Assembly (NCBI GenBank): GCA_051294375.1
Contig: JBJCIZ010001663.1
Coordinates: forward strand, 1 to 32,569
Direction of reading: 5' to 3'
Length of the DNA: 32,569 nucleotides
DNA from: Paraspadella gotoi
Taxonomy: Eukaryota; Animalia; Chaetognatha
The position numbers were made by a program, and so were the translations under genes. The notes under the pieces are model-generated. The model searched no databases, was not told the DNA's origin, and saw nothing but the letters and a program-made list of their open reading frames with translations. Below, piece by piece: positions 658-22,558 of the stretch; the stretch's first letter is position 1; each line of letters opens with the position of its first letter.

Positions 658-666
658 AGGTAAACT
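658..666 (+). promoter_or_regulatory. Candidate major 5' splice donor (AG|GTAAAC) upstream of the structured leader
   Basis: AGGTAAACT is conserved at 19087-19095 in copy 2 although neighbouring sequence has diverged; a second conserved candidate AAAG|GTTAGA lies just before the gag ATG. Confidence 0.4.
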
Positions 667-669
667 GTT

Positions 670-850
670 CTCGACAGTGGCTCTGCCGCGTAATGCCGAG
701 AGGAGTAACAAGGAACCGCGGAGAGATTTATAACTCATCGCGGGCAAACTTTGTCGCTTGGGGACTCTAACCCATCGGCGAAGTAGTTAGGGAAAATACT
801 GGTCGTAATAAAATCTGAATCCCCCCTCTCAGATTAAGAAACGCCCGGTA
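670..850 (+). other. Structured 5' leader RNA (four hairpin domains; candidate packaging/dimerisation or translation element)
   Basis: Stems show compensatory changes relative to 19099-19278, e.g. ACTTTGTCG/CGGCGAAGT vs ACTTCGTCA/TGATGAAGT and TGGG/CCCA vs TGAG/CTCA. Confidence 0.75.
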
Positions 851-4012: not shown

Positions 4013-4102
4013 CTTGCAGCCGCGTACGCCGTCACAGGAACTTTTCGTCCCATAGTTCCTGTTATTGTTAAAAACGGGAACAGAACTGTGACGACGTACG
4101 CG
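4010..4102 (+). promoter_or_regulatory. Probable programmed stop-codon readthrough signal (UGA-C, 8-nt spacer, stem-loop)
   Basis: gag and pol share a frame and are separated only by TGA 4010-4012; 4021-4037 pairs with 4086-4102 (16/17); inner stem 4055-4063/4073-4081; conserved in copy 2. Confidence 0.8.
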
Positions 4103-7100
4103 CTCCTCGACTCAGGAGCAACCCGCTCCGCAGTCGCAACTAATATCGTCAACAAATTAAATTTGAACCCTTATACGTTATTTACTAATCTGACAACTTA
4201 CGACGCAACCTCGCAAATTTGGCGAGATTTCGTAGATTTCGAAATAAAGAATATGGATAATACCTTTTCAATTGAAATTAAAAAAGCAATCGTCGGCAAA
4301 ATTCTAACTTGTGAAAGCGACAAACCTGTAAAGAATGAGGATATACGCGATTATGATTATATGAGAGATGTTGAATTTATCGAGTTGAAACATGATAATG
4401 TTGATTTGATCTTAGATGCAAGCCTCGCGTCGGAATGGATCGGAGGATCGACACGAGTCGGGCCGCCGGGCTTCCCCACTGCCTTACACACCACATTTGG
4501 TTGGACCCTAATCGGACCAAGTGAAAACGGACGCCAAGGAGAGCATGTTATTAGTTGCCTTGACGCCAACCCCTCAGGTTTGGAAGAACTTGAATTCCAA
4601 ATCTCGAAACTAGAGAAGATGGATTTTTTGATGAAAGAATCCGAACATTATTCGTCCGAAGTGAGTCATCCATCTGCTCTAGATCAATATGCAATAGAAC
4701 AACTCGAATCTGGAACTTTCTTTAATCTCTCCACAGGTCACTATAGCGCCCCAACGCCATGGAAGAAGGGGCGAAAAGCAGCGGCAGAGGAATTCAAAAG
4801 AATCAGAGAAGCCACCATCGCAAGCGCAAAAAGAAGAGCAGTCAAAACAGCAGAAAAATTGGCGAAGGATCCAATACTAAAGAAAGGAGTCTTCGAGACG
4901 ATGCGCGAATGCATGGAAGCCGGCTTTTCAAGTAAAGTGGAAATTGAAAATCTAAACGGCGAATTTCCAGAATACTATACCCCGTTACACATAGTCACGC
5001 GCCCTGACAAGCCCGGTAAATTCAGGATTTGTCAGGATGCAGCCTCGAAAACTCGAGGTACATTTTTAAATGATCACTTAATAGCGGGCCCGGATAATCT
5101 AACTCCGTTATTGGGCGTTCTAATGAGATTTCGAAGAAAGAGAGTAACACTGTCAGCCGACATTAAAGGCTTCTTCCACCAAATTGAAATTGACCCCGCC
5201 GATAGAGGGGCATTCAGATTTTTTTGGTATAGTGACGAAAGCATGACGAAGCTTGAAACTCATCAATCCAACGTACACATTTTTGGCGGCTCTGGTAGCC
5301 CAGGAGTAGCCAACTGGGTGATAAAATACCACATAAAAAAAATCAAAGATGAAATCTCACTCGAAGCCTTTTTATCTATTTTTCTTCAGCTCTACATGGA
5401 TGATCTCCTAGACTCTGTCAGCACGCCGCAAGAAGCTCAACGATTGAGATTAGAACTCACCGACGCACTCAAACGCGGAGGTTTTGAACTCTGCAAATTC
5501 AAAAGTTCAGACCCACGAGTGCTCAAGGATGATCCCATATCAGACGACACTCCTCCAGCCATCTTCCAGGAAACGGACGAGCTCGTCGATGATCTCGAGA
5601 GGATAGCCGAAAATACTTCTCCAGAAAGCCCAATGATCGAGGACCACTCAAGTAAGATTTTGGGAGTAGGTTTCAATTCCGAAAAAGATATATTTTTCAT
5701 CCGTATTACTGAAAAGGCAAAAAAGGAAGCCGTTTCCAGGCGAGATTTTTTAAAATTGGTGGCAAGTGTTTACGATCCATTAGGGTTTGTCGCTCCATAT
5801 ATCCTTAAAGGAAGGTCTTATTTCCAAAAAGCGACAAATGATAAACTTACCTGGGACGAAAAAGTTCCGGAAGATCTATTCAAAAAGTTCGACAAATGGA
5901 GAAAGGATATGGAAAATCTGAAGAGATTCACCTTCCCTAGGTGGACCTCCATATCGGGTCTAAATGTCGCAAAAACACAACTGATTATTTTTGCTGACGC
6001 ATCGTCTACTGGATATGGGATTGTCGCATATGTAAAAAAGATGAATCAAGATGAAGACGAATGTCATGTCTCCTTATTTTATGCAAAATCACACGTTGTC
6101 CCATTGCAAATGCAAAGGACATTGATCCCAGGTCAAGAAGACCATCTTGAGAGCATGCCACGTCTAGAATTAAACGCGGCAAGACTCGCGGCCCAATCCA
6201 GAGATACCATAGTCAGAGAGTCCGGTGAAGAGTTTTGTAGTATTGTAATGCTTACGGACTCAGTTACAGTATTAAATTGGATAAACGATTACACTAAAAG
6301 ATTTAAAACCTTTGAACATTTTAGGCTCAAAACTATACGAAATTTATCCCCAATCCAGGAGTGGCGCCACGTCGAAGGGAAAGAAAATCCTGCCGATTTC
6401 ACCTCCAGAGGCCTTGACGCAAATGATAAAAAATGGCTCACCTTCCATCAAGGACCCACCTGGCTCCGTCGACCAGAAAGCGAATGGCCGACGTCGAAGT
6501 ACCCAGTCAAATCTTCGGCAAAGAAGGAGATGTCCAAAGATAAGAAAAATATTCAAGAAGTCAACTTAGCCGCAATTCATGATGATTGCACTTACTCCCC
6601 AATGGAATTGGTCGTCGTCAACGCCACTCGCACTTACCCAGCGCTTCCGCCATCAAACTCCAGAAATTGGGTGTTGAAAATTACAGACAAAGTATCAGAA
6701 TGGCGACAAAAGGTGAGAAGAATTGCTTATTTTTCAAAAGCTGTTCCCAAACTTTTAAAATTCTTAAAAGCGAAAAAAGAAGGGAAAAGAATTAGAGCCG
6801 AAAATATTTCACTTACTGCCGATGAATTTAAAAATGCAGAAACGAAATTAGTTAGAGCTATCCAACAATCATATTTCGATAAAGAATTCTATGAGTTATT
6901 TAAAATGGGCATTTTGTCTCCCGACGCAAAAAGGGAACTTAGAACCAAAAGCTCAAAAATGATTTCATTAAGTCCGTTTATTGATTCAGAAAATTGTATC
7001 AGAGTGGGCGGCAGACTTGGCAATGCCAAAGATATGAAATTCGAAACAAAACATCCGTTGATCTTGCCAAAGAATGATGAAAATGTAGATTCTTTAATTA

Positions 7101-8203
7101 GGCACCATCATGAACAATTAAAGCATGCTGGCGGTTCAGCTACCTTTCATTCCTTAAACCAAACTTTTGCTTTATTAGGAGGACGAGCAAATGTGGACAT
7201 CATCGTCAAGAAATGCCTCCAATGTCAAAAGGCTCACAAAAATCCAACTCCACAGCAAATGGGACCGTTACCGGAGTTTCGAGTAGAAGCAACCATTCCT
7301 TTTCAAACCACTGGAGTCGACGTTTTCGGTCCCTATAAAGTAAGGAATGCCGGGAGAGGGTATAATAATAAACATGTTCTTCTCCTCACCTGTATGACCA
7401 CAAGAGCCGTGGTTTTTGAAGTACTAAAAGATATGTCAAGTATTTCAGTCATTTCAGCCTTAATAAGATTTCGTTCACATTTCCCAGGCTTGGAGAGACT
7501 CGTCTCCGACAACGGAACAAATTTTAGAGGAATTGACAACGAGCTCAAAAGGCAATTAAGAACAATTCGCCAGGATGAAAAATTCACGGAGTTCATCGCC
7601 TCGAACGACATCAGGTGGGACTTTGGTCCTCCCCATACTCCTCATTGGGGGGGAGTGTGGGAACGCCTTGTAAAAAGTACCAAAAAACATATTACTACTT
7701 CTTTACCTAAAGAGCCTGATCTCGATACCTTTGTCACTATTTTGTGTGAGATCTCTGCCATACTGAATAGAAGACCAATTACACAGGCGCCAGCAAACCC
7801 AAATGAGATTATAGCATTGAGCCCTGAGAATTTTTTATATCCCTACTTGCACGCTTCAACCGCTTTAACTCTTCTCCCTTATGCCCCTACAGTTGGCGAC
7901 ACCCTGCGAGCATCGTGGAAGGCCGTTCGAGATACGGCAGACAGATTCTGGACACGCTGGAGACAAGAATATCTCACGACCCTTCGAAGTCGAAAGAAAT
8001 GGACGACCTCATCCGATAGCCTCGAAATGGGAGACATAGTCTTAATAGAAGAAGAAAATACACCCCGTGACATTTGGAGAATCGGCCGAGTCTTAGAACT
8101 AGTGGGAGAAGACGTTCATAAACGTGAAGCAATCGTGATAACTAGGAACAAGAAGGAGATCCGCCGTCATGTAAAAACTTTGATCAAACTAGAAGTCGAT
8201 TAA
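4013..8203 (+). CDS. pol: Pol: aspartic protease, reverse transcriptase, RNase H, integrase (translated as Gag-Pol fusion)
   Basis: PR ALLDSGA; RT LSADIKGFFHQI and LYMDDLL; RH IIFADAS, PRLELNAA, TDS, WRHVEGKENPADFTSRG; IN HEQLKH..CLQC, GVDVFGP, SDNGTNF, GGVWERLV; C-terminal FWTRWRQEYL. Frame is open from the gag stop. Confidence 0.95.
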   Translation, partial: LAAAYAVTGTFRPIVPVIVKNGNRTVTTYALLDSGATRSAVATNIVNKLNLNPYTLFTNLTTYDATSQIWRDFVDFEIKNMDNTFSIEIKKAIVGKILTCESDKPVKNEDIRDYDYMRDVEFIELKHDNVDLILDASLASEWIGGSTRVGPPGFPTALHTTFGWTLIGPSENGRQGEHVISCLDANPSGLEELEFQISKLEKMDFLMKESEHYSSEVSHPSALDQYAIEQLESGTFFNLSTGHYSAPTPWKKGRKAAAEEFKRIREATIASAKRRAVKTAEKLAKDPILKKGVFETMRECMEAGFSSKVEIENLNGEFPEYYTPLHIVTRPDKPGKFRICQDAASKTRGTFLNDHLIAGPDNLTPLLGVLMRFRRKRVTLSADIKGFFHQIEIDPADRGAFRFFWYSDESMTKLETHQSNVHIFGGSGSPGVANWVIKYHIKKIKDEISLEAFLSIFLQLYMDDLLDSVSTPQEAQRLRLELTDALKRGGFELCKFKSSDPRVLKDDPISDDTPPAIFQETDELVDDLERIAENTSPESPMIEDHSSKILGVGFNSEKDIFFIRITEKAKKEAVSRRDFLKLVASVYDPLGFVAPYILKGRSYFQKATNDKLTWDEKVPEDLFKKFDKWRKDMENLKRFTFPRWTSISGLNVAKTQLIIFADASSTGYGIVAYVKKMNQDEDECHVSLFYAKSHVVPLQMQRTLIPGQEDHLESMPRLELNAARLAAQSRDTIVRESGEEFCSIVMLTDSVTVLNWINDYTKRFKTFEHFRLKTIRNLSPIQEWRHVEGKENPADFTSRGLDANDKKWLTFHQGPTWLRRPESEWPTSKYPVKSSAKKEMSKDKKNIQEVNLAAIHDDCTYSPMELVVVNATRTYPALPPSNSRNWVLKITDKVSEWRQKVRRIAYFSKAVPKLLKFLKAKKEGKRIRAENISLTADEFKNAETKLVRAIQQSYFDKEFYELFKMGILSPDAKRELRTKSSKMISLSPFIDSENCIRVGGRLGNAKDMKFETKHPLILPKNDENVDSLIRHHHEQLKHAGGSATFHSLNQTFALLGGRANVDIIVKKCLQCQKAHKNPTPQQMGPLPEFRVEATIPFQTTGVDVFGPYKVRNAGRGYNNKHVLLLTCMTTRAVVFEVLKDMSSISVISALIRFRSHFPGLERLVSDNGTNFRGIDNELKRQLRTIRQDEKFTEFIASNDIRWDFGPPHTPHWGGVWERLVKSTKKHITTSLPKEPDLDTFVTILCEISAILNRRPITQAPANPNEIIALSPENFLYPYLHASTALTLLPYAPTVGDTLRASWKAVRDTADRFWTRWRQEYLTTLRSRKKWTTSSDSLEMGDIVLIEEENTPRDIWRIGRVLELVGEDVHKREAIVITRNKKEIRRHVKTLIKLEVD

Positions 8204-8727
8204 AGAAACGATGAATCTATCAAAGTCCATTCATTCCTAGCATCGATGGTATGAATGTTCTCTTATTTTATCAAATAAGTTAGTATTAATTACAAACAAT
8301 TCATTTGTACCAAACTGAGTTCCTATTAACCTATTTGTTCACGAGACAAAATTTTTCAACAATTCGCCCATCGTTTGGAAATTATTCGTTTGAAATTTAA
8401 AGTCTAGCCATAGGTCAAATATCAAATTCAGATATTTAGTTCGAATTGTTAAATTCGTTGTATTTAGTCTTCGTTCAAATTGAGTACAGAACACTGATCT
8501 GTCTAACGGAAGTTAATTGGCAAGGCAGAGCGCAAAAAATTAGAATGTTTAAACAGTTATCTAGTAGATCGAATAAGTTGTTGCTATTAGAATTAATCAT
8601 TTGATTACAAAGGGAAATAGCTAATTACAACCAAATACCTATATTCAATTACTTACCTATCCAAAACAGATTGTTAGATTTTACTGACTCTCTTATTCAA
8701 GGTCACTTGTTGAAAGCACAATCCAGG

Positions 8728-9330
8728 ATGGAATCGACGGAAATAGTCACGATCGAAGACGAGCCTCTAAGTCAAAATGAATCAGTGTCTGCTCCCTCGG
8801 AGATGAAATCATCACCGCCCGCGACTCCAGATAGGAGATCGTCGTCACCTGCATCTCCAGAAGCAAGGTCACTCTCGCCAACGTCCCCAATATTCTTATC
8901 GCAGCCTGAATCCGAAGCCGCACCTCCATCAAGTTCCGCGTCAGCTGCGGAAATAGATCGTGAAGACATAATCGAAATCCTTGAAGTCTCAAAATGGGCG
9001 CCGCCTCCTTCATCATCATCATCAGAAGAGGACGAAATCATCGTTTTGACGAAGTCAACAAGCGCAGAGTGTTTCGCCGAACTACAAGAAAAGTGGAATG
9101 AAGAAAGCAAACGCGAATTCCTCCGACAACAACGAAAGAAAGAAGAAGCCAAGAAGCGCCTTCAAAGTTGGAAGAAGGAAGTCGCCCGCCTTCGCGAGGA
9201 TTTACAATGCGAAAAGGAACGGAGGATCAAGAAGAGCCTACGGGAAGAAGTCCGAAAGATCAAGAGAGGCAAGAGGAATCGCGCTCTCTTAGCCAAAATT
9301 CGCGAGATGGAAGAAGCGGAGGAAATATGA
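8728..9330 (+). CDS. Accessory A1 (200 aa): Ser/Pro-rich N-half with SIM-like motifs, basic coiled-coil C-half
   Basis: First ATG at 8728 aligns with the homolog at 27278-27898; strong protein conservation with many synonymous changes. Confidence 0.85.
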   Translation: MESTEIVTIEDEPLSQNESVSAPSEMKSSPPATPDRRSSSPASPEARSLSPTSPIFLSQPESEAAPPSSSASAAEIDREDIIEILEVSKWAPPPSSSSSEEDEIIVLTKSTSAECFAELQEKWNEESKREFLRQQRKKEEAKKRLQSWKKEVARLREDLQCEKERRIKKSLREEVRKIKRGKRNRALLAKIREMEEAEEI

Positions 9331-9886
9331 ACTAATATTGAAAATCATTCAACTGTCTCTTAGTGACACATTTACATTGCTTCATGTTCATCATCGTTCA
9401 GCCAATCCCATTGTTTTATGCATTGTTATTTCAACCGATGGGTAGATCCATCATTTCTATCTCTCTACGGGTAAAGTCGAAGAATGAAGGTTTAAACAAG
9501 AGCCGTATAACTAGAATACGACGACTACTAACAAAGTGAAGAGAGATCATTTGCGATGAAAAATTGAATCAGAAAAAATAAATTGAGGAGATAGGGCATC
9601 GTTAATGTTAATAAAAACTGTTATCAAACAAACAAACTTTGTTTTCTCTAAATATATATACACGAGGGAAAAGTGTGAAAAATTAAAATCTCTCTCTTTG
9701 CCGCCTTCTGTCGTTACTCGATTCTGATGTCTATTCATTGAAATAATTTTTTTCTGTTTAATGTTCCTCCTCAGGCACGAGTCGTTAGATTAAGTAGAAA
9801 ATAATTTAGGACACAGTCAAACCGCTTCAATTAAGCTTCCACGTTCGAGTCAAACTTCTTTACGGACGACCACTCGCGGTCTCGGA

Positions 9887-10592
9887 ATGTCTTCGGACGA
9901 ATCAACCAGACGAGCAAGAGCGACCGCTGCCAGGACGTGCGGAAAGCCGATAGCGAGGGTATCTCCGTTCCATCCTGGGGAACCGTTGCCTCCAGGCGTG
10001 GAGTTGCCGCCAGTCGTCGCGCAACCGCGTCCAACTCGAATAGTCAGACCAACCGTCGTGCAGCCGCGCCAGGCCCAATTGGCTTCGCAAGCCACCGCGC
10101 CATCAAGCCGAGTTCGAGCGGTATCTCCAATTGCTGCGCCGCAGCAGCAATACCAAGGCTACCTGCCAACTCCTGAACCTCGATACAGTAGAAGTCCTTC
10201 CGAGCGCAGACGATTAGGCTACCCTCCTCTCATGGACGATTCGGACCCCGATATCGTAAGAATTTATTATATGGAATAATGCTGACAAACAATATTTTTT
10301 ATTATCCGAAAAGATGCCGCTAAACAATATTTATTATAGAAAAGATGCTGCCAAACAACATTTATTATAGGAAAGATGCTGATAAACAATTATTTCCTAG
10401 GAAATCATTTTCGACTCGAATCAACGCGCCAGAACGGAACGCAGATACGAAATCGTCAGAAGCGTGGAGGCTACGATCAGCGACTTACGCGAATCGTTGA
10501 CGCGCGGACGTCAGGAAGAAGCTGGGAGGGCCAGAGAGAATCCTAGGCCACGAGTGCCAGTCAAGGAGAGACTTGGACGGCGTCCCTATTAA
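9887..10592 (+). CDS. Accessory A2, two exons join(9887..10255,10401..10592), 186 aa, Pro/Arg-rich
   Basis: Phase-0 intron GTAAGA...TTTCCTAG; exon 2 (EIIFDS...DLRESL...PVKERLGRRPY) is homologous to exon 2 of copy 2. Confidence 0.8.
10262..10390. repeat. ~31-bp degenerate tandem repeat (4 units) forming most of the A2 intron
   Basis: Unit approximately ATTTATTATAGGAAAGATGCTGACAAACAAT; two related units at ~28652-28710 in copy 2. Confidence 0.8.
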
Positions 10593-10762
10593 AACAAGTC
10601 CAATTTAGACTATTGGAGCCAGAAACATTTATAATCAGCAGACGTGATCGTTGAATTAACATGATTCATTTTTAAAATCAGCAAACGTTACCGTTGTTTT
10701 AAAACGATTTCAGATATTAATTAAGACTCATTATCTTGAACACTCAAACATTCCGGTAGAGG

Positions 10763-11031
10763 ATGGAGAAGAAATTTAAGTCGAACTCGCAACCGACGTC
10801 GACGGCATCGTTAGCTCCGAACTCATCGGAAGTGACGATAAACGTGAGTGAAACCTGAGGAAATAAATAAAAGTAATAAGTAAACTAAATAATCGCTTAC
10901 CTGTTCAGTGGACCCCGGTGGAGACGCCACTGCCTCGACGACGCCTAGCAACGCCTCTCGCAGGAACGAAAATCGGACGCATCATCCCGCCTCACGTCAT
11001 GTCATCAGACATTTATTGCAAAACACCATAA
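10763..11031 (+). CDS. Accessory A3, two exons join(10763..10843,10909..11031), 67 aa
   Basis: Phase-0 intron GTGAGT...CTTACCTGTTCAG; 27-codon exon 1 and C-terminal MSxDxYCKT conserved in copy 2. Confidence 0.75.
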
Positions 11032-11286
11032 GATGCTCATTTATCATTATTTCGTGCAAAGCTCACGAATGAATGAGAGAGAAAAAACTCAGTGTTCTAA
11101 ACAGTGTTTAATCCGCTCTTTTTCATTACCATTTGAATAACTTCCAGTATATTTACTGAATTTACCCAAAAATCTTGGTGTCACGAGAACACGGACTTCT
11201 GCATACTTGAAACTTACCTGACGAGAAAAGAAGCCAAGCCCAAGAGACGTCGATCCAGCGTAAACCCGGAAAGTCTTGGCGAAACC

Positions 11287-11526
11287 ATGTCATCGAGACG
11301 AGTGCTCTTCAATAGGATGATCGACCTCATCCCGATGGAACATTTAGCAGAGTTTCACGAGAGATATAATCATTGGTACGACGAGACAACTCTCAAGATG
11401 GACCAAATCGAATCCTTGAACCTATCCGAGATAAGCAAAGAACTTATAATGCAATTGGCAATGAAAAAAAGGAAAGAAATGCTGAGGAAAATTATTATCG
11501 ACCTGCGGAATAAAGCCGAGAAATGA
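11287..11526 (+). CDS. Accessory A4 (79 aa, helical; paralog of A5)
   Basis: Homolog at 29752-29991 is almost identical over the first ~33 aa despite many synonymous changes. Confidence 0.88.
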   Translation: MSSRRVLFNRMIDLIPMEHLAEFHERYNHWYDETTLKMDQIESLNLSEISKELIMQLAMKKRKEMLRKIIIDLRNKAEK

Positions 11527-11595
11527 TTAGTATATCATCAATTTAAAATCATTCTGTTGATTTATTTACTCTCAGTTCATTATTAAGCAAGCAAA

Positions 11596-11895
11596 ATGCA
11601 AAGGGAACATGTGGAAATAGTAGGAGAGCTCCATATGCGGATCCTACTTGAACTTGTTCCAGTTCAACACAAGGGAGAATTCATAGTCGAGTTCGGTCTT
11701 TGGAAAGAAAGAACAGAAAAGAAACTAAACGATACGGTGGATGAACTGATGACGCAGTATGTTGCGATGGATCGCGTTCCTACAGCATCATTGGAAATAT
11801 TCAATCGCATTGAGCGGGATGCCCTCGAAGACATTCACGCCATCATCAGGGATTTCAACTACCGTGCTCAATCCCGAAGAGAGGAACAACGATGA
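11596..11895 (+). CDS. Accessory A5 (99 aa, helical; paralog of A4)
   Basis: Homolog at 30086-30376; upstream acceptor CTCTCAG ending at 11575. Confidence 0.88.
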   Translation: MQREHVEIVGELHMRILLELVPVQHKGEFIVEFGLWKERTEKKLNDTVDELMTQYVAMDRVPTASLEIFNRIERDALEDIHAIIRDFNYRAQSRREEQR

Positions 11896-11996
11896 ACATC
11901 TCGTGAAATGACCAATCTAATAAACTTTGCGCCATAAAATTAATGAACTTGTAATGATAAATTAAAATTAACGATTATGCTTGTCTATTCAGGAAA

Positions 11997-12197
11997 ATGA
12001 ATTCATTCAATAGTTATACGTTCGGAAGATTCGGCATCTGTTACGATGAAATCCACAAAGCCCCGCGCTCTGATCCGGAAAGGCCAAGCGCGAAACGGTC
12101 TCTTTCCCTCCTGAAAAGTAAAAAGATGATCGTAAAAACATTTGTACCCAGTCAAGAAATCGAAAAGTCGATTACAAAATTCACAAACTCTAATTGA
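11997..12197 (+). CDS. Accessory A6 (66 aa, basic)
   Basis: Homolog at 30501-30707 (FGxFGICYxExH, SDPE, SAKRSL conserved); acceptor TATTCAG ending at 11992. Confidence 0.8.
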   Translation: MNSFNSYTFGRFGICYDEIHKAPRSDPERPSAKRSLSLLKSKKMIVKTFVPSQEIEKSITKFTNSN

Positions 12198-12279
12198 CTC
12201 TTGTTTATTTTCACCAGAGTTTTTTATTGCAGTTCCAACCCCATTGCGAAACAAATTCATTTTCGAATTTACCTACGAA

Positions 12280-12627
12280 ATGTCCAACAAAATTGTTTGG
12301 TTGTGGGACGACTGGAGAAGCTTGAAGCTCCAAAAAGAAAGCGAGAATAGAAACCAAAAAATCTTGGACGTAATTCTCCGAGAAGCAGAATCTAATCTAT
12401 CCTACAAACCCGATTGGATAAAGGAGATACTTTTTGGCGAAAACAAAGGCCCTGAATACGAAGCTGAGAAAGCAATTCGCCTGGCAAGAGATTGGATGAA
12501 GACAGCGGAGATCCTGAAGAAAGAAAAACCTAAGAGATCCAAAACCTTCGAAGCCATCATCAAAATGATGCAAGAACGCATCGAGAAACAAGAGGCTGTT
12601 TTAGAAAAACATTTTATGGATGAATAG
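12280..12627 (+). CDS. Accessory A7 (115 aa), family Y
   Basis: ATG at 12280 (MSNK) aligns with homolog at 30769-31107; DW-x21-RE motif. Confidence 0.87.
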   Translation: MSNKIVWLWDDWRSLKLQKESENRNQKILDVILREAESNLSYKPDWIKEILFGENKGPEYEAEKAIRLARDWMKTAEILKKEKPKRSKTFEAIIKMMQERIEKQEAVLEKHFMDE

Positions 12628-12708
12628 AATTTACATGAGTAATGCAAAATTCATATCAAAGTATTAATCAAATTATTCAATTTTGTCGTTACAGCATTAA
12701 CAGATACA

Positions 12709-13092
12709 ATGCAGAACAGGCCTTCACCTACCTCGATCTACTCCAAAGAACATTTGGAGCTTTGCGCCTTCAAACGCAGGAAGACGGATGAACTGGAAAA
12801 GCGTCTCCCGGGCTGCGTCGAAAAGTGCATCGAATGGACGCAGAACTATATAGCAGAGATTGAAGAACTGCGCAAAGCAATCGCCAAAAGAAAAGCGAAA
12901 AATCCGACAGCGAATGTTGAAAATCTCATCGAAAGAGTTAAGAAAATCGAGGAGAAGTTTCCGACTCTGGAGCGGTGGAAAGAAGTCTATTTGAACAGAG
13001 GCTGTATTTTCAGCCATGAAAGCTTGGATTCAATAAAGGATAAGATTCCTCCAAAGGAGAGAATAGAAATTGTGGGATTTTCGATCATGTGA
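12709..13092 (+). CDS. Accessory A8 (127 aa), family X
   Basis: Same-length homolog at 31205-31588; LPGCVEKCIE and W-x7-GCIF motifs. Confidence 0.88.
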   Translation: MQNRPSPTSIYSKEHLELCAFKRRKTDELEKRLPGCVEKCIEWTQNYIAEIEELRKAIAKRKAKNPTANVENLIERVKKIEEKFPTLERWKEVYLNRGCIFSHESLDSIKDKIPPKERIEIVGFSIM

Positions 13093-13202
13093 AAAACTAC
13101 AAGGAATTTAAGTGATTTATTAATCTGTTGCTACAAGATATGTTCGTTTATTTAAAAAAAAAAAAACTTTTTTTCCTTTAGCCAGCGACTATTCACTCAA
13201 GA

Positions 13203-13547
13203 ATGTCCGATCCAGTGGGTGGTGCCCGATTCCTCCAAGAATGGAAACGTCTATTTGACAATGAGGGGGAAATGAAAGATAAACATTTTGGAAGGGATCT
13301 CAACGTGAGAGAACAAGAGGCGAAAATCAAGCGATATCCAGAGTGGCATAAAAACAAACCCGAAGATTACAAACTAGAGTTAAAAAAGGTCGCCGAAGAG
13401 GACGTCCGCAACGCAATAGGATGGAGAAAGACGGCAGTAATGCTCAAGCTCTACCGAAAGGAAAAAGCCGAAACTTACAGTGAAATCTACAAAATGATTG
13501 ATGAGCACATTCAGGAAAAACAGGAAGAAATCCTGATCCTGTCATAA
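13203..13547 (+). CDS. Accessory A9 (114 aa), family Y
   Basis: Homolog at 31690-32034; EW-x21-RE motif. Confidence 0.87.
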   Translation: MSDPVGGARFLQEWKRLFDNEGEMKDKHFGRDLNVREQEAKIKRYPEWHKNKPEDYKLELKKVAEEDVRNAIGWRKTAVMLKLYRKEKAETYSEIYKMIDEHIQEKQEEILILS

Positions 13548-13613
13548 CGCGATCTCAATATGAACTTACCTTATTTATTTACTATGTTTATTCTTAGGAA
13601 TTTTCAGGACAAA

Positions 13614-13934
13614 ATGCAAGGCTGCTGCGGATATTTGGCTGATTGTTATAGAGACTTCCGAATGTTCATCATAAGACGAACGGAAGAGTTAAACAGTGAA
13701 GCTCCCGATTGCGTCGAAAAGTGTTTCGACCTCATAAAGAGTTATTCGTCGGAATTGGAACAACTACAGGGAGTCATCAAAGATCCGGGAAATGATGACA
13801 AAATCCATCAAGAACGAATCAAGTATCTGGAGGAAGAAATTTCCTTCGTCGAGAGGTGGAAAAAGATTCGACTCACCCAGGGCCGGATTTTTAATAAAGA
13901 AAGCATCGGAATGTTGCCAGAGGAACTTCCGTAA
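13614..13934 (+). CDS. Accessory A10 (106 aa), family X
   Basis: ATG at 13614 follows acceptor TTTTCAG (13607) and aligns with homolog at 32121-32441. Confidence 0.87.
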   Translation: MQGCCGYLADCYRDFRMFIIRRTEELNSEAPDCVEKCFDLIKSYSSELEQLQGVIKDPGNDDKIHQERIKYLEEEISFVERWKKIRLTQGRIFNKESIGMLPEELP

Positions 13935-14025
13935 AATGATAATTTACATGCAGGATTATTCCATCTGTTCCGTTAGTATTCGTTTGGTTTAAAATGTATT
14001 TACCCAGTTCAGTTACTCATCGACA

Positions 14026-14379
14026 ATGTCCCGGATGAAGTCTATCGCTGAGATCCAAGACGAAATTACTCGAGACTGGGAGAAAGCAAGGAACATCGAT
14101 GACTACTCTCAGAGAAACGCCGCGGTCGAAAGCATCGTTTTTCGGGAGCATGAAATTCGGATTCAAAAGAAAAAGGAGGAAAGAGAAGAAAGAATGAAAC
14201 ACAGCAAGGCCATTGAGGCGTCCGAGATCTACAAAGACATCCAAGAGCTGGAGGATCGCCGAAAATTAGCAATGGACGCAAAACGTAAAAGGCCAAGTCT
14301 CGGTGATATTTACGATGAAATTGAAGGCCGAGCAAAGAAGTTACAGGATGAAGCAAAGGAGCGTTTGATGAAAATTTAA
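14026..14379 (+). CDS. Accessory A11 (117 aa), family Y
   Basis: DW-x21-RE motif; N-terminus KSIAEI recurs at 32538 in copy 2. Confidence 0.82.
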   Translation: MSRMKSIAEIQDEITRDWEKARNIDDYSQRNAAVESIVFREHEIRIQKKKEEREERMKHSKAIEASEIYKDIQELEDRRKLAMDAKRKRPSLGDIYDEIEGRAKKLQDEAKERLMKI

Positions 14380-14436
14380 AATTTAGTTTTATTGATTCTT
14401 GTCTAATGGTACGAATTTACTTACTTTAGTTACAGA

Positions 14437-14739
14437 ATGTTAACCGATTTTGAGTATAACAGGCGGGAAATGCGACTCTTTGCCGGTTACCTGATCCCAA
14501 GATCTCTGGAAGGAGCTTTGGAGGAGCTGAGAAGTTTTGAAAAAGAACTTTTTCAAGAGGAACAGGAAATTGAAAAAGGAATGAAGGGAGAAAAGACAAA
14601 GCGAAGCATTGAAAGCCACGAAGGCAGATCAGAATACTTACAAGATCGCATCAAGATGCTTAAAAAATGGCCAGATGTGTTAGAGCAAGAGGGAAAAATA
14701 TTCACCTCAAGATACTACAGGATTCCAGAATATTGTTAA
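14437..14739 (+). CDS. Accessory A12 (100 aa), family X
   Basis: IPRSLEGALE and W-x7-GKIF motifs; acceptor TTACAG ending at 14435. Confidence 0.8.
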   Translation: MLTDFEYNRREMRLFAGYLIPRSLEGALEELRSFEKELFQEEQEIEKGMKGEKTKRSIESHEGRSEYLQDRIKMLKKWPDVLEQEGKIFTSRYYRIPEYC

Positions 14740-14785
14740 TTATTTACTTACTCTTTCATTTTCAGTCTCTCACCAACATTTCGAG

Positions 14786-15049
14786 ATGTCCGAAGTAAGA
14801 AGGAACTTTAAAAAGTATGCCAGGGAAAACGCAATATTTTGGTTACCTTCTAATCTCGAGGATGCACTGGACGAGATCCGGAAGAGAGAAAACAACCTGG
14901 TTCAAAGAATTCAAGAATACGGAATCCATGGCGCAGATGAACGTGAATTCAAGACGATCGCACAACTCACCAGATGGGCAGGGATCTTGGAGGAGCAAAG
15001 AGAGATCTTTTCTTTGGAAACCAAGTCGATAATGAATTTGTGTCTTTGA
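14786..15049 (+). CDS. Accessory A13 (87 aa), family X
   Basis: LPSNLEDALD and W-x7-REIF motifs; acceptor TTTTCAG ending at 14765. Confidence 0.78.
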   Translation: MSEVRRNFKKYARENAIFWLPSNLEDALDEIRKRENNLVQRIQEYGIHGADEREFKTIAQLTRWAGILEEQREIFSLETKSIMNLCL

Positions 15050-15114
15050 TTCATACATTACCGTTTGAGTTTGTGAACTTAATTTATTCAAATAATGAAC
15101 TTACCTTTAGCAAA

Positions 15115-15450
15115 ATGAACATCGAAGACTTTAATAGAGTCCGTGATCAGCTGAACAAAGACTGGACTGATTTAGATCAAATTCCGTGGAGTCAAGAGAA
15201 GACAAAATCCATCATTGATCTGATGATCAGAGAGGATGCTCTATGGAATCGTCGAGAGGAAGAGATTAGAAAACAAGTCCCGCGAACGGTTGCTGAACTC
15301 AAAAGGGAGATGAACGAATCGGAAAACGTTGTATGGACGATAGGGGAGGCGCTAAAGGTTAAGCCTGAGAATGCAGCGGTCTACCTTCAATTCCTCAAAG
15401 CGGAAAAAGAAAAGATAAGAAAACTCAAAAATGAAAACGCTCTTCTATAA
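15115..15450 (+). CDS. Accessory A14 (111 aa), family Y
   Basis: ATG at 15115 follows acceptor CTTTAG (15110); DW-x21-RE motif. Confidence 0.8.
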   Translation: MNIEDFNRVRDQLNKDWTDLDQIPWSQEKTKSIIDLMIREDALWNRREEEIRKQVPRTVAELKREMNESENVVWTIGEALKVKPENAAVYLQFLKAEKEKIRKLKNENALL

Positions 15451-15556
15451 ATTCATAATTGGCCGATGCTATTATTTTGTTCATGTGGAGATAAATTATT
15501 GCTCAATGATTCTTTGTTATTAATAATTCTTGTTTATTCCATCAAGTTGTTAAAAC

Positions 15557-15907
15557 ATGTCAAGGGAACAGGACTCTGACCACTGGATTCGCGGTCATTG
15601 CCAATTGACTTATATCATGAAGAATCGAATGAAACAGGGAATTCGTCAAAGAATGCCAAGTTCCGCGGAAGAATCGTTTGAGCAATTCGAAAGTAATTGC
15701 TCAGAAATGGCAAGAAATGAAATTATCATGGAGACTAAATTCAACGAAAATCCTGAAGCAGACGTGGAGTCCGAAAAGAAGAGAATCCAAATTCTCGACA
15801 AGGAAAATACAAACCTTATCCTTTGGGCAAAGTTTAAGCTTCAGAGAGGAGATTTGTTTGCGGAAAAAACTTTATCTGAAATATCCGCTAAATTTCGTGA
15901 AAATTAA
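15557..15907 (+). CDS. Accessory A15 (116 aa), family X
   Basis: MPSSAEESFE and W-x7-GDLF motifs; NPxAxVE shared with A8. Confidence 0.8.
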   Translation: MSREQDSDHWIRGHCQLTYIMKNRMKQGIRQRMPSSAEESFEQFESNCSEMARNEIIMETKFNENPEADVESEKKRIQILDKENTNLILWAKFKLQRGDLFAEKTLSEISAKFREN

Positions 15908-16227
15908 TAATTGTGCATTATTGGATCATGATATTATCGTCATTGAATGTATCATTTTAATTGTTGGCTGAATAATCGATTACCTATCTATAAAAACTTA
16001 TCTTTAACAGGACATCTTTTTGATAATAAGTGCAATCGCACTAAAATTTCAATTCATTCTCATCCATAAACTCGAATAAACTTTCAATATTGAAAACACG
16101 CGCAACGGGAACGAATCCGCTTCAAATTCAGGAAGCATCAAATCCAAGGTGATTAATACTTAAAAATTACTACATAAAAATACAACAATTGTTCAAATAC
16201 TCACAAGTTAAACTTACCTATGTTCAG

Positions 16228-17583
16228 ATGCTTAGCACTCGCGACGCGATGTGGGGAAGTGACGAACTTTTGAATCTTTCTCTCGACGTCCAAGGAGAAG
16301 ATTACGCCTCCATATTCCCGCAGAATTGCGCAAACCCGGATGAGATAGCGGGCTTCAGCCGAAGGGACCCGTTAAGTCTTAATACTCCCCCAAATCCCAA
16401 CACCCTCTTCAACTCAAACGCCACTCCTGTGAGCAGCACCCCAATTCCCTCTTTTATGGAATTATCGGAGGTATTTAAATTGGGAATTGTCTGGATTGCT
16501 ATTTGTTATATATTTATACTATACCTGAAATATTATTTGCAGCCAACTCTTCTTCAGCGTCTTCCGTTGAATGACGCACAGGATTCATCCTCGAACGATG
16601 GAACCCTTCCTTACGACATTCCGCCCACGCCCAAAACTCCTCCCAATTTGCCCACGACGTTGTTCGATCCGCCGACTCGTAAACTGCCGCCAATCCCAAT
16701 GAAGAACGGAACGATAGATACGTCTCAATGTAATAACAATCTTAGCCTTCTCGCCTACAACGATGAAAGAATCCCGTTTATCATTGGAACAACCGACGAA
16801 TGGAAATTCAGATCGGACGTTCCACTCTCGGGCAAGGTGGGGAAATGGATAAAGACATGTCGACGCAATTGGCGAAAAGTAGCGAGGAAGCGCGGTATCG
16901 ATTATATCAAGTTCGTTTTCGAAAATTTTGGTCTCCTCGCCAATCCCAGTGAACCCCAAGACGAGAGACTCCACTTACCTCCCAGCGGTGTAAAAAATCC
17001 GACGACGACGAAAAGAAAGGTCTTCGTCAAGCAGCCGACGGCGTCAACATCCTCGTCATCCATTATGGATTCGTCGGCGTTCGGGCCCCCGCTAGCATCG
17101 TCATCTTTTAACGACATCTCAACGGAGCCGAAAAAAACCCGAAGCGACGAAGTCCGTCGTCTCCTCGCCGAAAAAGAAACTCTAAAATTAGAGCGGGATA
17201 AATTTAAAGATCGTGCGGCGAAATTAGAAGAAGAACTCGCGAAGGAAAAGAAACTCCGCGAACTGGACCGTGATCGTTTCGAAGAAAAGGTCAATAAGAT
17301 AAGAGAAGACTCTGATAGGCGGATCGACCGTCTGACGGAGACTCACCTCCACGAAATAAAGAGCTGGCGAGAAGCTCTCTGCGCTCCGCAACAATCCTCA
17401 AAATCTTCGAAAGGCAACGAGAAAAGAAGTGAGTCGCCTAAAATGCGCGTACACGGTGAGCCGTTTAGAATCGCAGATACTCGTCCCCACTTACCCGTTT
17501 TCGATCCTCCACCCCATCTCCAACATTTGACGAAACCCCCCCGTCAGTCCCCACCCCCTCGTAAAATTCAAAAGAAATATTGA
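16228..17583 (+). CDS. Accessory A16 (451 aa unspliced; 427 aa if the in-frame 72-nt intron 16471-16542 is removed): Pro-rich region, small Trp/basic domain, coiled coil
   Basis: Long ORF; ATG directly follows acceptor TGTTCAG (16227); AT-rich GT...TTTGCAG segment inside; AATAAA hexamers downstream at ~17828, 17848 and 17905. Confidence 0.8.
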   Translation: MLSTRDAMWGSDELLNLSLDVQGEDYASIFPQNCANPDEIAGFSRRDPLSLNTPPNPNTLFNSNATPVSSTPIPSFMELSEVFKLGIVWIAICYIFILYLKYYLQPTLLQRLPLNDAQDSSSNDGTLPYDIPPTPKTPPNLPTTLFDPPTRKLPPIPMKNGTIDTSQCNNNLSLLAYNDERIPFIIGTTDEWKFRSDVPLSGKVGKWIKTCRRNWRKVARKRGIDYIKFVFENFGLLANPSEPQDERLHLPPSGVKNPTTTKRKVFVKQPTASTSSSSIMDSSAFGPPLASSSFNDISTEPKKTRSDEVRRLLAEKETLKLERDKFKDRAAKLEEELAKEKKLRELDRDRFEEKVNKIREDSDRRIDRLTETHLHEIKSWREALCAPQQSSKSSKGNEKRSESPKMRVHGEPFRIADTRPHLPVFDPPPHLQHLTKPPRQSPPPRKIQKKY

Positions 17584-18004
17584 AACGATGCTTACCTTCT
17601 ATATTTGAACTCATTCTATATCGTTATTATATTTGGCGTCAGTCTGATTTGTAACATAAATAATTAAATTTGTTTAACTGACGCGATATCGCATATTGTT
17701 GAGCAACGTTATACTGTAAATAACAATTAAATTAACTCACCGTCTCAAATCGCGGTTATTCATCTAATTCCAATTGCCTATTATCTTGTATTACGATTAT
17801 TCATTAATACTTACCTCCTATATGGCAATAAACATTAATGTCATTCAATAAAGTGTAAAAACAATGGATGATGGGGGGTTGCTTGCCTGTTTCCTTTGCT
17901 GAGTAATAAAACTTGGACAACGTAGTAAAATATAAAATTGTAATTTTTCAAATAGAAATTGACAGTCGAGGAAAGATAATTCAAAAAATTAGTTTACCCC
18001 TCAC

Positions 18005-18017: not shown

Positions 18018-18188
18018 TGAGATCCCGTGTTTGAGACTTACTCCAAACCAAAACCTCAAGCAAGTACTAGCAACTCGCATAATTTGTGCAGGGATAAGCT
18101 AATTTTAATTCGGGCCCGTCAAAGCCGAAGTCCTTGATCCAGTTGCGGAAAAATCGACGGTGGGAGCGGACCTGTCCAGACGAAGGCG

Positions 18189-18338
18189 CCGACGGAGCCG
18201 CAGATGGGACCTCCGACGGACCGCAGATGGAACCTCCGACGAGCCGCAGATGGGACCTCCGACGGACCGCAGATGGGACCTCCGACGAGCCGCAGATGGG
18301 ATCGCAGATGGGATCGCAGATGGGACCGCAGATGGGAC
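18189..18338. repeat. GC-rich tandem repeat (23-bp then 12-bp period) containing 8 CGCAGATGG cores
   Basis: CAGATG at 18201, 18224, 18247, 18270, 18293, 18305, 18317 and 18329. Confidence 0.92.
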
Positions 18339-18584
18339 TGCCAACGGGCTCGCGGACGGAATTATCAACGTTCAAGATCGGGTTGGGAAATCACAGCCGC
18401 GAAAGGGGGGAGTTATTGCAGCATTGCAGCATCGGGAAATGCAGAGCCTTTGGGACGGGGGAGTAAGAAGGAGAGATGATGAACCTACCTCCAAGATGAC
18501 GCAGTCTGAAATGATTTAGATGTGCCGCTATGTCTGCGCTTCCTTTATTTGGCAACTTTGACATATAAGTATTTACAATGTTCC

Positions 18585-18594: not shown

Positions 18595-18983
18595 TGTAAC
18601 AATAGGCGCTAACATAGTGGTACGAGCGGTGAATGAGATGGAACCGATGATCACCTGTTTCCTAATCTTGCCTTACTTTCGCCCTCTACCGTTCTTGGTT
18701 CCAGCTCATTCTCCGATGGAAGGCCGAATCGTAAACATCGAAAATAATAATTTTCTACTATTTCACAAAAATGTAAATATTTAATTAAATATTTATTTAT
18801 TATCGTAATTATTATAACTTAAGAATTAATTATTAAATTAATTCTTCCTTCCATTCTAGGTTTGAACAATTCCATTTCTCGTATTTTGGAACGCAGCGAA
18901 AATGTACTCGTCTTCTAAAATATATCTTGGTAGTTCTACATTAAGTGGATTATATTTAGGTATTTTAGTATAGATTAGTTACA
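18595..18983 (+). repeat. Central LTR (389 bp): 3' LTR of copy 1 and 5' LTR of copy 2
   Basis: Nearly identical to 178-555 (a 1-bp indel, a ~12-bp indel and very few substitutions); TGTAAC...GTTACA termini. Confidence 0.8.
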
Positions 18984-19098
18984 TTTTTACATTCAAACAT
19001 TTTTTAAGTAAATATTAGTTAATTAGTTAAAATTAAATTAAGACTTTAAACTTGAGAATTATAACTTAGAATGTAAAATTAATAATAGGTAAACTTTT

Positions 19099-19278
19099 CT
19101 CGACAGTGGCTCGCCACGGTAAATGCCGAGGGAAGTAAAACGGAACCGCGGGGAGATTTATAACTCACCGCGGGCAAACTTCGTCATTTGAGGACTTTAA
19201 CTCATTGATGAAGTAGTTAGGGAAGAAACCGATTGTAATAAAATCTGAATTTCCCCCTCAGATTAAGAAACATTCGGT
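19099..19278 (+). other. Structured 5' leader RNA of copy 2
   Basis: Same hairpins as 670-850 with compensatory substitutions. Confidence 0.75.
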
Positions 19279-19371: not shown

Positions 19372-22300
19372 ATGGATAGCTTTAACGAGGATAGCGATAG
19401 TGTTTCGGGTAGAGAATTTAGACATTTTTTAACTGAATTTAAGCAGAAGTTAGATAAGTTTAGTTCGAATTACCGATTGTATTTATCTAACAAAACCTCG
19501 GCAAACTTACGCGAAGCTCTCAAAACGCGCGAGAACCTCGTTGATCTCGTAAGGGATCTGTCGGGCGGGCTCCTAAACCGTCCAGACTTGAAAACGCGGC
19601 GCGCGGAGGGTCTTCTGTGTGAGGCTGAGGAGTTATTATTACGTTGTCCAAATATTGATATTTCTGAAATGAGTGACCCCGAACCCATCGAAACGAGTGT
19701 TCGCGATAGGCCGATTGAATCATGTTGCATTGATCCTGTTTCTACGTCGGTTCCTGTAACTAATCCGGTTCCTGTAACTAATCCCGTTTGTGTTGATACG
19801 CCAGCCGTCATGTCCGTAGACAAAATTAATCCTACCATTCCCTCTGTCGATCCCGATTCCGACCCACACCCTGTCCCCGCCCGTGTGTCCAGCTGGGTCC
19901 AGGAGGCCGCCGCCAATCGCGGGAGAACGCCGTCCGCCGATTCCTCCGAGAAGACCGAAGATGACAGTCAATCGGGAACGACGTCTTCAGGGTCCGGTGT
20001 ATCGAGGCCGTCACGCAAGGCACAGCGGGAGAGATTAATTAAAGAAGGTGAGGTGGAGGACCGTCTGTGCAATTTCCGTCGAAAACTCGAGCGAATGGAG
20101 AACGAGCAAAACCGTAAAATGATTGAGTTGAATGAAGCTCGTGACGAAATGAAGAGAATGGAACGAGAGGCAGAAATTGAGAGGATTGATATTAAAAGTC
20201 AATATGAAGAAGAGGTCGAAATTCTTGAATTAAATGTCTCTCTGATCAGGAACGACGCGGAACAGAAGAAACGCGAGAGGGCCATTCGGACGATAACGAA
20301 CGTGGAGGAACCTCTTCCCGCAGCGGCGCCGTCGTATCCAGCCCACTCAACCGAGACGGAAAATCCACGCACGCAGAATCGGTCGCGATCCGTTGCCGTG
20401 GCTACGACAACGCTGCCCCGTTCAAAGTCAGCGGGGAGCCGCCCGTCGGAAAACCAGCGCGGAGCCGTTACTAAGGTTACGGCGGCTTCGAAGGCGCCGC
20501 GACCTACAACGAGAGTCCCGGTGCGAACGAATGAAGCCGTGTCGGGGGCGCCGGCGCCAAAGACGCCGGCCCAAACGCCCGGCCAAGACGCGGCGCGAGT
20601 ACAACGAGGACCGCTCAACCAAAATTTACGTGTTGTACCTGTTTTGCATGATGTTGATCCCTGTTTTGCCGTGCCTATTCCTTCTGCAATTTCGAGTGAA
20701 TTACAAAATGAGAATTGTGTGTCGAAAGGTTATTTGAATGAGAATGAGAATCTAGTAGAACGAATCAGTGCCTCTGTAAGGCCGTCTGCTGCTGTGTCAC
20801 CGCCCTTTGTTGCGAATCCAGTTGATTGCACGGATCCGATCATGTCAGCTCAGCCAGGCGTTTCCTCTTCGTCGCCTCAGTTTAAACAGCAAGAGAATAT
20901 TCTGTCGATGATTCAGGCAGCGTTGTTGCAAGCTATAACGCCTTTGTTTGCGGCGCAAAATGCTATGATGCCATCTGTAGCGCCGCCAGTTAATGTTATG
21001 ATGCCATCTGTAGCGTCGCCAGTAGCGCCGCCAGTCAATGTTTATGACGCCTTCTGTAGCGCCGCCAATCGCGTCGCCGGTTAACGTGACGACGCCGCCC
21101 GTAGTGCCGCCGATCGCGCCGCCGGTTCCGTCGGACGACCTCGCCCCGCCTCTAGTCTCGGCTCCAATCACGATCCCTCCGTCGCCGGGTCCCGAAGCTG
21201 CAGTGGATCTAACGGTCCCGAAAACCGTGGTTTATCCCTCGAGACCACCCACACCCCGTCCACCACCCCAGGTACCGACTCGAAACCGGAAAAACAGGTT
21301 CTTAATAGAAAAAACAAATTAAATGAGATTGAACCCATTCCAAACGTTATTAATGACGATATACCTCAACTTAGTGACGACGAAGTATCTATATGTTCGG
21401 ACAACACTCACCGTGTCGGATCCATTGTAGCACCCACGTCAGAGGACGGTCCGTTGGCGCAACTTTGTGCCATTCAGCTTCAGCAACAAGCTTTCTCACT
21501 GATGCGGCAAAAAAGGCCAAAACTCAAATTCTCCGGAAGGGATCGTCGAGTCGATTTCGACAACCAGCTCGCCCTTTTCAACACCCTCTACAGCATTCCG
21601 GGAATCACCAACGAGATGCTGGGTTGGGGAATTAAGGGAGTACTTCGCAGGTGACGCCCTTATAATTATCCAACAGTACGAGTTGGGAAGTGACTACTGT
21701 AGATCGTTAAAAAAGATTAAAAAAAGCATTGAAAGGGCAATTCGGGAGAAAAGCATATACAGCTAGACATTTACTGGATAATTTATTGAAAGGTTCAAAA
21801 GATCAGTAGCCGAGATTCGGCAGGCCTAAAAACGTTCATACTCGAATTAGAAAAAATTTATTTGCGAGCAAAAGAAACGAATAGAGAAAAAACATTTGCA
21901 ACGCAAGAAATATATACCGAGATCTTGTCGAAAAAGGCCCCGCATCTGGGAAATGCATGGGCGAAAAGGGCCGTAAAAAAGAAAATGGAATGGTTAGAGA
22001 GAGAGACTGATGACGAAGATGACGAATGTGATTTAGACCCCACGTTCGAAACGTTTTATTAAATTCCTTAAATATACGGCTGAGATATCTGAAATGGGTT
22101 CTATTTATTCAGGGTTCGGCGCCCCGAGCGAAAGCAAGACGCCAAACGCGGGACCCACTGCCACTTCAACGCCAAAACTCATCGAAAGCCGTTCCCAGTC
22201 CGCTTTGCAGCCGTCGCAGCAAAATCGGCGAAACCCACGTCAATGCTGAAAAGCGCAGATACAACGCCAAAATTTCCCCACCCCAACGCCAATCCCATGA

Positions 22301-22558
22301 CGCACGCTCCAAGGACCCCGTCAGCAGGTGACATGCTATATGTGCAGCGCAAACCATAAGCTGGAAGCTTGCAGAAAGTATCTGAATCTCGTGATTGAAA
22401 AAAGGTGGGAATTCATCAGAAAAAATAGTCTATGCCATGTTTGTTTGAGGCGTGGCCATATCACTAAGGAATGTAAGAGTTTACTAGGTTGCCGAAAATG
22501 TGCCGGCCGTCACCACGTCTCCGTGCATGCAGAGACGCCGGCCGCAAATTCTTCTTGA
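19372..22558 (+). pseudogene. gag: gag of copy 2, broken by several small indels (possibly sequencing/consensus errors)
   Basis: ORF fragments 19372-21084, 21038-21322, 21454-21654, 21862-22062 and 22328-22558 tile the copy-1 Gag; several breaks fall in homopolymer runs. Confidence 0.8.

Follow-up and report, generated by a model that had tools for sequence, protein, structure and literature searches.

Two Bel/Pao retrotransposons with arrays of accessory genes

The stretch of DNA analysed here (the window, 32,569 nt) comes from the chaetognath Paraspadella gotoi (GenBank assembly GCA_051294375.1, contig JBJCIZ010001663.1, positions 1 to 32,569, forward strand). It contains two head-to-tail long terminal repeat (LTR) retrotransposons, A and B, with a spacing of about 18.4–18.5 kb, and an array of accessory genes follows pol in both. 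Read on the opposite strand, the word ACTTACCT gives the consensus 5' splice site, and this antisense signal is enriched in the non-coding spacers. As far as the window can show, the motif is real, is carried by the elements and is unexplained by an ordinary branch consensus. The elements have the following features, numbered by position in the window.

178–676, plus strand: 5' LTR of A, TGT...ACA, with a TGG primer-binding-site-like start directly after it
941–4012, plus strand: gag-like open reading frame (ORF) of A, 1023 residues, with C-terminal Cys/His knuckles
4253–8203, plus strand: pol of A, with reverse transcriptase, Peptidase_A17 (Pao), integrase zinc finger and core, and DUF5641
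8728–17583, plus strand: 16 accessory genes of A, with spacers mostly of 46–125 nt; two paralogous families, about 90–130 residues
10256–10400, plus strand: predicted sense intron of accessory gene 2 (counterpart in B, 28639–28724), with no strong motif
10844–10908, plus strand: predicted sense intron of accessory gene 3 (counterpart in B, 29295–29356), in A and B alike, the motif precedes its AG by 4 nt
16471–16542, plus strand: predicted in-frame sense intron of accessory gene 16, in one copy only
18595–19105, plus strand: LTR serving as 3' LTR of A and 5' LTR of B, with a purine tract upstream
19372–26753, plus strand: gag and pol of B, the gag frame broken at several places
26754–32569, plus strand: accessory genes 1–11 of B, where the window ends; nine strong minus-strand donors (26932, 27032, 29119, 29344, 29494, 29659, 30743, 31655 and 32456)

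Both elements are Bel/Pao LTR retrotransposons. Pol holds Peptidase_A17 and DUF5641, and its domains run in the order reverse transcriptase, RNase H region, integrase. The LTR ends are TG...CA, a primer binding site follows the 5' LTR, and a purine tract precedes the 3' LTR. The pols of A and B are 90% identical to each other, the nearest database proteins are 36–43% identical to them, and the named matches are distant (about 25–32% identity). The Atlas clusters closest to pol are mostly from Arthropoda, a weak hint given the few members with a record. The gag of A gave no match in Pfam, a homologue search with the C-terminal part of gag found none, and no env-like Pfam match is present in the element. 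Related DNA was found at 28 loci in metagenome contigs, and none was found in viral and prokaryote collections.

Element A forms a unit of 18.4 kb with 16 accessory genes on the same strand. Across five orthologous gene pairs of A and B (527 codons), the identity at codon positions 1, 2 and 3 is 0.78, 0.85 and 0.53, respectively, and because of this pattern we take the accessory genes to be real plus-strand genes. Eleven of them belong in or near the two paralogous families, which alternate along the array. No homologues of the accessory proteins were detected in a search that covered one family, and exon 2 of gene 16 gave only scores under 0.9 against the Atlas. The predicted structure of gene 8 has three long helices (predicted local distance difference test score 69), and this model has no match in the PDB at E ≤ 0.001. 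A protein gene on the minus strand was ruled out, as no long minus-strand ORF is common to the copies and the third-position divergence fits plus-strand coding.

Sense introns are predicted in three genes, two of them at the identical place and phase in A and B. The gene-2 intron (10280–10400 and 28650–28724) is made up of short repeats of a unit with TTTATTATAG and AAAGATGC in both copies, and offers several alternative AGs. In most accessory genes, a pyrimidine tract and an acceptor-like AG lie shortly upstream of the ATG. Of the 12 spacers from gene 4 to gene 16, only 2 contain a sense AATAAA or ATTAAA hexamer, and five such hexamers follow the last accessory gene (17663–17905). We infer that the array is one transcription unit, from which nested mRNAs are made by the use of alternative acceptors, starting from an LTR or leader donor or from a spliced leader (SL). 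Given some 19 acceptors in the genomic RNA, this raises the question of how splicing of that RNA is avoided in an LTR element. Both copies retain donor-like sites, AG/GTAAAC at the LTR end and AAG/GTTAGA immediately upstream of the gag ATG (660, 930, 19089 and before 19372), and from their sequence they are candidates for a common leader donor.

A sequencing run (X1, its kind guessed, with 0.11 of the words present) was compared with positions 8210–17915. It yielded 43 contigs, 30 of which are under 90% identical and represent other copies of the family. Exact contigs are unspliced across the predicted gene-2 intron (10111–10451) and the gene-16 acceptor (16002–16248), which has no bearing on expression. 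Two joints in this run (with ends CG..AC and TC..AC) are non-canonical on either strand.

Enrichment of the motif in the non-coding spacers

A preliminary description of this DNA had listed ACTTACCT at 13 positions, and the exact word is present at every one of them, always on the plus strand and never on the minus strand. Its rough estimate of less than one copy by chance also holds, with 0.44 copies expected in the window and at most 3 found in 100 whole-window shuffles. A composition-matched enrichment test, in which only the non-coding stretches of the arrays were shuffled, gave 11 copies in 5,749 non-coding bases against 0.066 expected (0 of 500 shuffles), and the word is the top-ranked 8-mer. 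Element A alone has 6 copies against 0.04 in such non-coding shuffles. With the strictest count, taken in A only and with 11148–11286 treated as coding, 5 copies are observed against 0.04–0.26 for Markov orders 1–3 (p ≤ 7e-6). The sites in A read as follows on the minus strand, where a slash marks the splice position.

8651–8658, minus strand: AG/GTAAGT, consensus donor, in the spacer after pol
10895–10902, minus strand: AG/GTAAGC, within the gene-3 intron; orthologue of 29343
11212–11219, minus strand: AG/GTAAGT, orthologue of 29658; possibly coding on the plus strand
13564–13571, minus strand: AG/GTAAGT, 17 nt past a stop codon
15099–15106, minus strand: AG/GTAAGT, overlapping the pyrimidine tract of a sense acceptor
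16212–16219, minus strand: AG/GTAAGT, overlapping the pyrimidine tract of a sense acceptor
17590–17816, minus strand: three strong donors (17591, 17736 and 17810) after the last accessory gene, amid five sense poly(A) hexamers

Several details of the preliminary description needed adjustment. Variants occur as described at 10895, 17590 and 29493, but the one placed at 12268 starts at 12267. Likewise, the similar slot given at 27249 exists but starts at 27250, where it reads ACTAACCT, a CTAAC variant. The distance of 4–8 nt to an acceptor describes part of the sites: from the motif end to the next AG there are 4 nt (10895, 29343 and 31654) or 6 nt (16212), and elsewhere 2 nt (15099) or 9 nt (30742). 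The 11 sites had all been called non-coding, but those at 11212 and 29658 are possibly coding: both copies encode E-T-Y-L there, and in copy A no stop interrupts the next gene's frame across the motif. Finally, the match to the 5' end of U1 small nuclear RNA (snRNA) extends over the 8-mer but not beyond it, with AT preceding 2 of the 11 sites and G following 3 of the 11. Because the match stops there, "U1 5' end" means the donor-pairing part only. Local folds led us to reject hairpins that hold the motif.

The variants of the motif best fit a 5' splice site on the minus strand

When a strong donor is defined as G/GTRAG, the spacers have 10 such sites on the minus strand in A and 9 in B, against 0.7 expected in each case (0 of 200 shuffles for both), and none on the plus strand of either. 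Over the whole window the ratio is 37 minus to 6 plus. Coding DNA has a weak excess in the same direction, with 5 sites against 1.9 in the accessory coding sequences of A (3 of 100 shuffles) and 7 against 3.2 in gag and pol of A (7 of 100).

An antisense donor predicts an invariant GT, A or G at position +3 and a loose position −2, and the enriched variants, all of which keep the GT, fit this prediction. On the minus strand, the enriched words are G/GTGAG (4 against 0.59; 0 of 600 shuffles), G/GTAAT (6 against 1.61; 5 of 600), CG/GTAA (5 against 0.94; 1 of 600), GG/GTAA (6 against 0.96; 0 of 600), A/GTAAGT (4 against 0.39; 2 of 600) and A/GTAAAT (6 against 1.05; 0 of 600). The effect is weaker for G/GTAAA (6 against 2.31; 25 of 600) and G/GTAAC (2 against 0.78). 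Words that break the GT are not enriched, namely ACTTATC (1 against 0.54), CTTAT (5 against 8.57) and TTTATC (4 against 4.33). In the 15 GGTAAG sites, position −2 is A in 14, position +6 is T in 12 and position −3 is A or C in 11, and the bases from +7 onward are mixed. The sequence information is thus limited to donor positions −2/−3 to +6, and the minus strand matches the U2-type consensus AG/GTRAGT with its invariant GT. Among the three explanations offered in the preliminary description, donors or U1 sites on an antisense transcript give the best fit to the variant spectrum, a judgement made at the sequence level.

Minus-strand acceptor-like sites are not enriched in the spacers (3 against 2.7 and 1 against 1.3), and minus-strand AATAAA is in excess there (14 against 6.5, 0 of 200 shuffles; 11 against 3.5, 1 of 200). 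Some motif sites have no sense acceptor after them (three lie past the last gene), and others lie between the acceptor and the ATG (12267, 14769 and 31677). In the region where A and B can be aligned, only 2 of 4 strong sites in A and 2 of 9 in B are orthologous, indicating repeated gain and loss. The absence of a minus-strand acceptor excess, the AATAAA excess and the mostly unshared sites together suggest that the geometry of the sites is irrelevant and that it is their presence that recurs, which suits orphan U1 sites better than introns. We consider it slightly favoured that the motif is an antisense donor or U1 site. About half of that weight goes to decay of the RNA rather than to protection of read-through. 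The reading that ACTTACCT is an orphan (unpaired) site for the U1 small nuclear ribonucleoprotein, marking antisense RNA for nuclear retention and decay, is our leading but tentative proposal, at a little short of even chances.

Several observations weigh against this proposal. In 5 of the 32 called acceptors the A of the motif lies 7, 9, 9, 9 or 11 nt before the AG, and the CTAAC variant at 27250 has a spacing of 9 nt as well; such spacing suits a role on the sense strand. A pyrimidine-rich word can arise in spacers and pyrimidine tracts without harm to sense coding, and this could explain the partial clustering at acceptors. Single-mismatch variants favour G·U pairing by the sense strand (7 against 0.59), T-to-C single variants are absent (0 against 0.12 expected), and CTTGCC, in which the GT becomes GC, occurs twice against 0.52. 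Pol of B shows no excess of strong minus-strand donors (3 against 2.3), and the AATAAA excess on that strand may be a mere mirror of U-rich sense tracts. The variant tests were designed after the variants had been seen and rest on small counts, and the two elements are related to each other. For a retained donor, the precedent comes from mammalian cells (PMC4380460). In 3 of the 28 related loci, those close and long enough to compare (L003, L005 and L008, 36–39% identical in pol), the DNA after pol has 0 strong minus-strand donors, so the array of donors is not a trait of the whole clade. The exact motif occurs once in each of 7 of the 28 loci, on the plus strand in 4 and on the minus strand in 3. 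In the same three relatives (L003 1265–3058, L005 7771–10254 and L008 3022–6175), pol is likewise followed by accessory ORFs on the same strand and by intron-like stretches, where the motif is missing.

Alternative explanations

In nematodes, the Ur element is proposed to pair specifically with the 5' splice site of SL RNA. The preliminary description had suggested that the motif is a comparable guide on the sense strand. Accordingly, ACUUACCU would mimic the U1 5' end and pair with an AG/GUAAGU donor, most likely that of a host SL RNA, and recruit it to the acceptors of the operon-like array; or it would mask the element's own donors and keep the genomic RNA unspliced. This remains an unlikely explanation, though one with a real share of our belief. 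It draws on the layout of the array, with its short spacers, an acceptor-like AG before most ATGs and few internal poly(A) hexamers, as well as on the G·U-compatible single-mismatch variants mentioned above (0 of 1000 shuffles), on the excess of the Ur word TACCTT (6 against 1.51) and on a tendency of the motif sites towards low pairing in local folds (under 0.45 for 11 of 20 sites, where the background averages 0.57). The Ur motif TAYYTT lies about 50 nt upstream of trans-splice sites (PMC7668243), is said to hybridise with SL RNA (PMC11155486), and the RNA of an LTR element, Cer1, can undergo SL trans-splicing (PMC3315495). However, only TACCTT is enriched here, and the Ur wobble words TACTTT, TATCTT and TATTTT are not. 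The change from C to T at the base facing G+1, which separates a guide from a donor, shows no excess, whereas variants of the G/GTGAG type are enriched, including CTCACC, which has a central mismatch to GUAAGU. All seven of the G·U-compatible variants are C-to-T or A-to-G changes, also expected from plain decay in AT-rich DNA. A strong site is present in only 8 of 20 and 7 of 13 spacers, and the plus strand has no perfect partner in cis. Duplexes with the element's own donors reach −4.3 to −8.8, against −9.0 kcal/mol, and show no compensatory change between A and B. A copepod SL donor reads AG/GUGUGU (PMC4664967), which in this one case counts against a guide.

A second sense-strand explanation, also proposed earlier, is a host branch point or a fused branch and 3' splice-site signal unusually near the AG, in which YTTAC fits yUnAy and the CCT tail starts the pyrimidine tract. 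We disfavour it and consider it unlikely. The usual branch words are not enriched: CTAAC (4 against 4.32), CTGAC (4 against 2.56), TTAAC (10 against 11.93), CTAAT (7 against 8.39) and again CTTAT, with TTAAT not enriched either. A pyrimidine before the branch A gives the worst pairing with U2. The spacing of 7 to 11 nt speaks for a branch point, as do the preservation of the motif in the gene-3 intron of both copies and the CTAAC variant in the same slot at 27250, but the spacing is partly circular because the acceptor calls favoured pyrimidines. CTTACC is missing within 60 nt upstream of 25 of the 32 called acceptors, and 3 of the 5 predicted introns lack the motif. Ordinary YTRAY words peak 17–28 nt upstream instead (12 counts, with no shuffle control). 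Neither an enrichment of YTRAY or CTAAC words nor a fixed distance at most acceptors was found. The sites could also be working donors of a spliced antisense non-coding RNA that starts from the downstream LTR, which is improbable. The donor-type variant spectrum would fit this equally, and purine-rich coding DNA supplies pyrimidine-rich acceptors on the minus strand, but such acceptors are in excess neither in spacers nor in coding DNA, the sites are mostly not orthologous between A and B, and no long minus-strand ORF is common to the array. Least probable, and by our estimate very much so, are a DNA-binding site and U1 snRNA debris left by template switching. For the former, we take a CAGGTA-type activator motif to be a candidate, and four sites read CAGGTAA on the minus strand. 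For the latter, the 8-mer equals nt 3–10 of U1 (consensus in PMC3033335). The strict strand bias of 13:0, the free base before the AG and the lack of extension into further U1 sequence count against this pair of readings; no match to RF00003 or beyond the 5' end was found, and an Rfam scan of the window gave 0 matches at E ≤ 1. Copies of U1 or SL RNA genes were ruled out, with no common flanks and no Rfam match.

Proposed role of the putative antisense donors

If the motif is an orphan U1 site on antisense RNA, the minus strand would have to be transcribed, by read-through from host DNA or from the downstream LTR, and U1 would bind the antisense donors. RNA with a retained consensus donor beside a poly(A) signal would look mis-processed, and it would probably stay nuclear and be degraded. 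Transcripts that retain a consensus 5' splice site show poor 3' processing, nuclear retention and decay in mammalian cells, and protection by U1 from premature polyadenylation is cited in the same source (PMC4380460). Fewer antisense transcripts would then leave less precursor for silencing by PIWI-interacting RNA (piRNA) or small interfering RNA. As an alternative outcome, the sites might keep a host transcript from being polyadenylated too early where transcription of its gene runs through an intronic insertion in antisense orientation; intronic elements show an antisense bias (PMC1794541).

In its fullest form, the proposal is that the retrotransposon has armed its antisense strand with poly(A) signals and orphan U1 sites by the dozen, that any antisense RNA is taken for mis-processed and destroyed in the nucleus, as a protein-free counter-defence against piRNA trapping made from the splice code of the host, and that the 16-gene array is expressed from one promoter by nested splicing. 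This combination is speculative, and we think it rather unlikely to hold as a whole. For a mobile element the expectation is loss of splice signals that disturb it or its host, and a repeated gain of perfect donors on the non-coding strand runs against this. As U1 sites on antisense RNA, the motifs would give the element a sequence-encoded means of evading or softening host control, one that could be looked for in any transposon library by simple counts. As sense guides for a spliced leader, they would instead extend the Ur mechanism beyond nematodes.

Comparison with known systems

With known Bel/Pao elements, A and B share the LTRs, gag and the set of pol domains; the 16 accessory genes and the predicted sense introns are additional. 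The retained 5' splice-site motif of PMC4380460 has the same consensus word, no paired acceptor and an adjoining AAUAAA. In the mammalian mRNAs treated there it is depleted from terminal exons, whereas here a mobile element has the word in excess on its antisense strand. The nematode Ur element of SL2 operons is alike in being a donor complement in short intercistronic spacers before acceptors, and its word TACCTT lies within 6 sites. It covers positions −3 to +3 and is found near −50; in contrast, the motif here covers −2 to +6, its position is not fixed, its wobble words are not enriched and many spacers lack it.

Burro, Ogre, foamy-like fish endogenous retroviruses (ERVs) and Terminons are also large retroelements with extra coding capacity, but they are gypsy-like, retroviral or Penelope-like, and no Bel/Pao array of this size is described in the portion of PMC6431247 at hand. 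Cer1 of C. elegans is an LTR element, too; consensus splice sites have to be bypassed in its genomic RNA, and it makes a spliced, partly SL1 trans-spliced sub-genomic RNA. It is gypsy-like with one spliced RNA, and the sections of PMC3315495 at hand describe no gene array and no donor-complement motif. For human ERVs, antisense splice signals affect the survival of intronic insertions, and the signals are similarly frequent on both strands (PMC1794541), whereas the donors here favour the antisense strand (37:6). Searches of the literature for accessory ORFs in Bel/Pao or LTR elements, for trans-splicing and for Ur or ACUUAC motifs found neither the element nor the motif described in titles or abstract openings; these searches were not aimed at antisense donors in transposons.

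Other features of the elements

The gag of B (19372–22560) is split into several frames, often at homopolymer runs, through decay or read error. In both copies the gag stop is followed by a protease-like region in another frame (4010–4071 and 22556–22620). The LTR at 18595–19105 is near-identical to the 5' LTR of A over most of its length and differs more towards its 3' end, where one 50-column bin is at 72%, and the sequences suggest that it is a chimera joining two subfamilies about 20–25% apart. Before the purine tract, at 18175–18360, there are tandem repeats of 23 nt and 12 nt, which are open in three frames.

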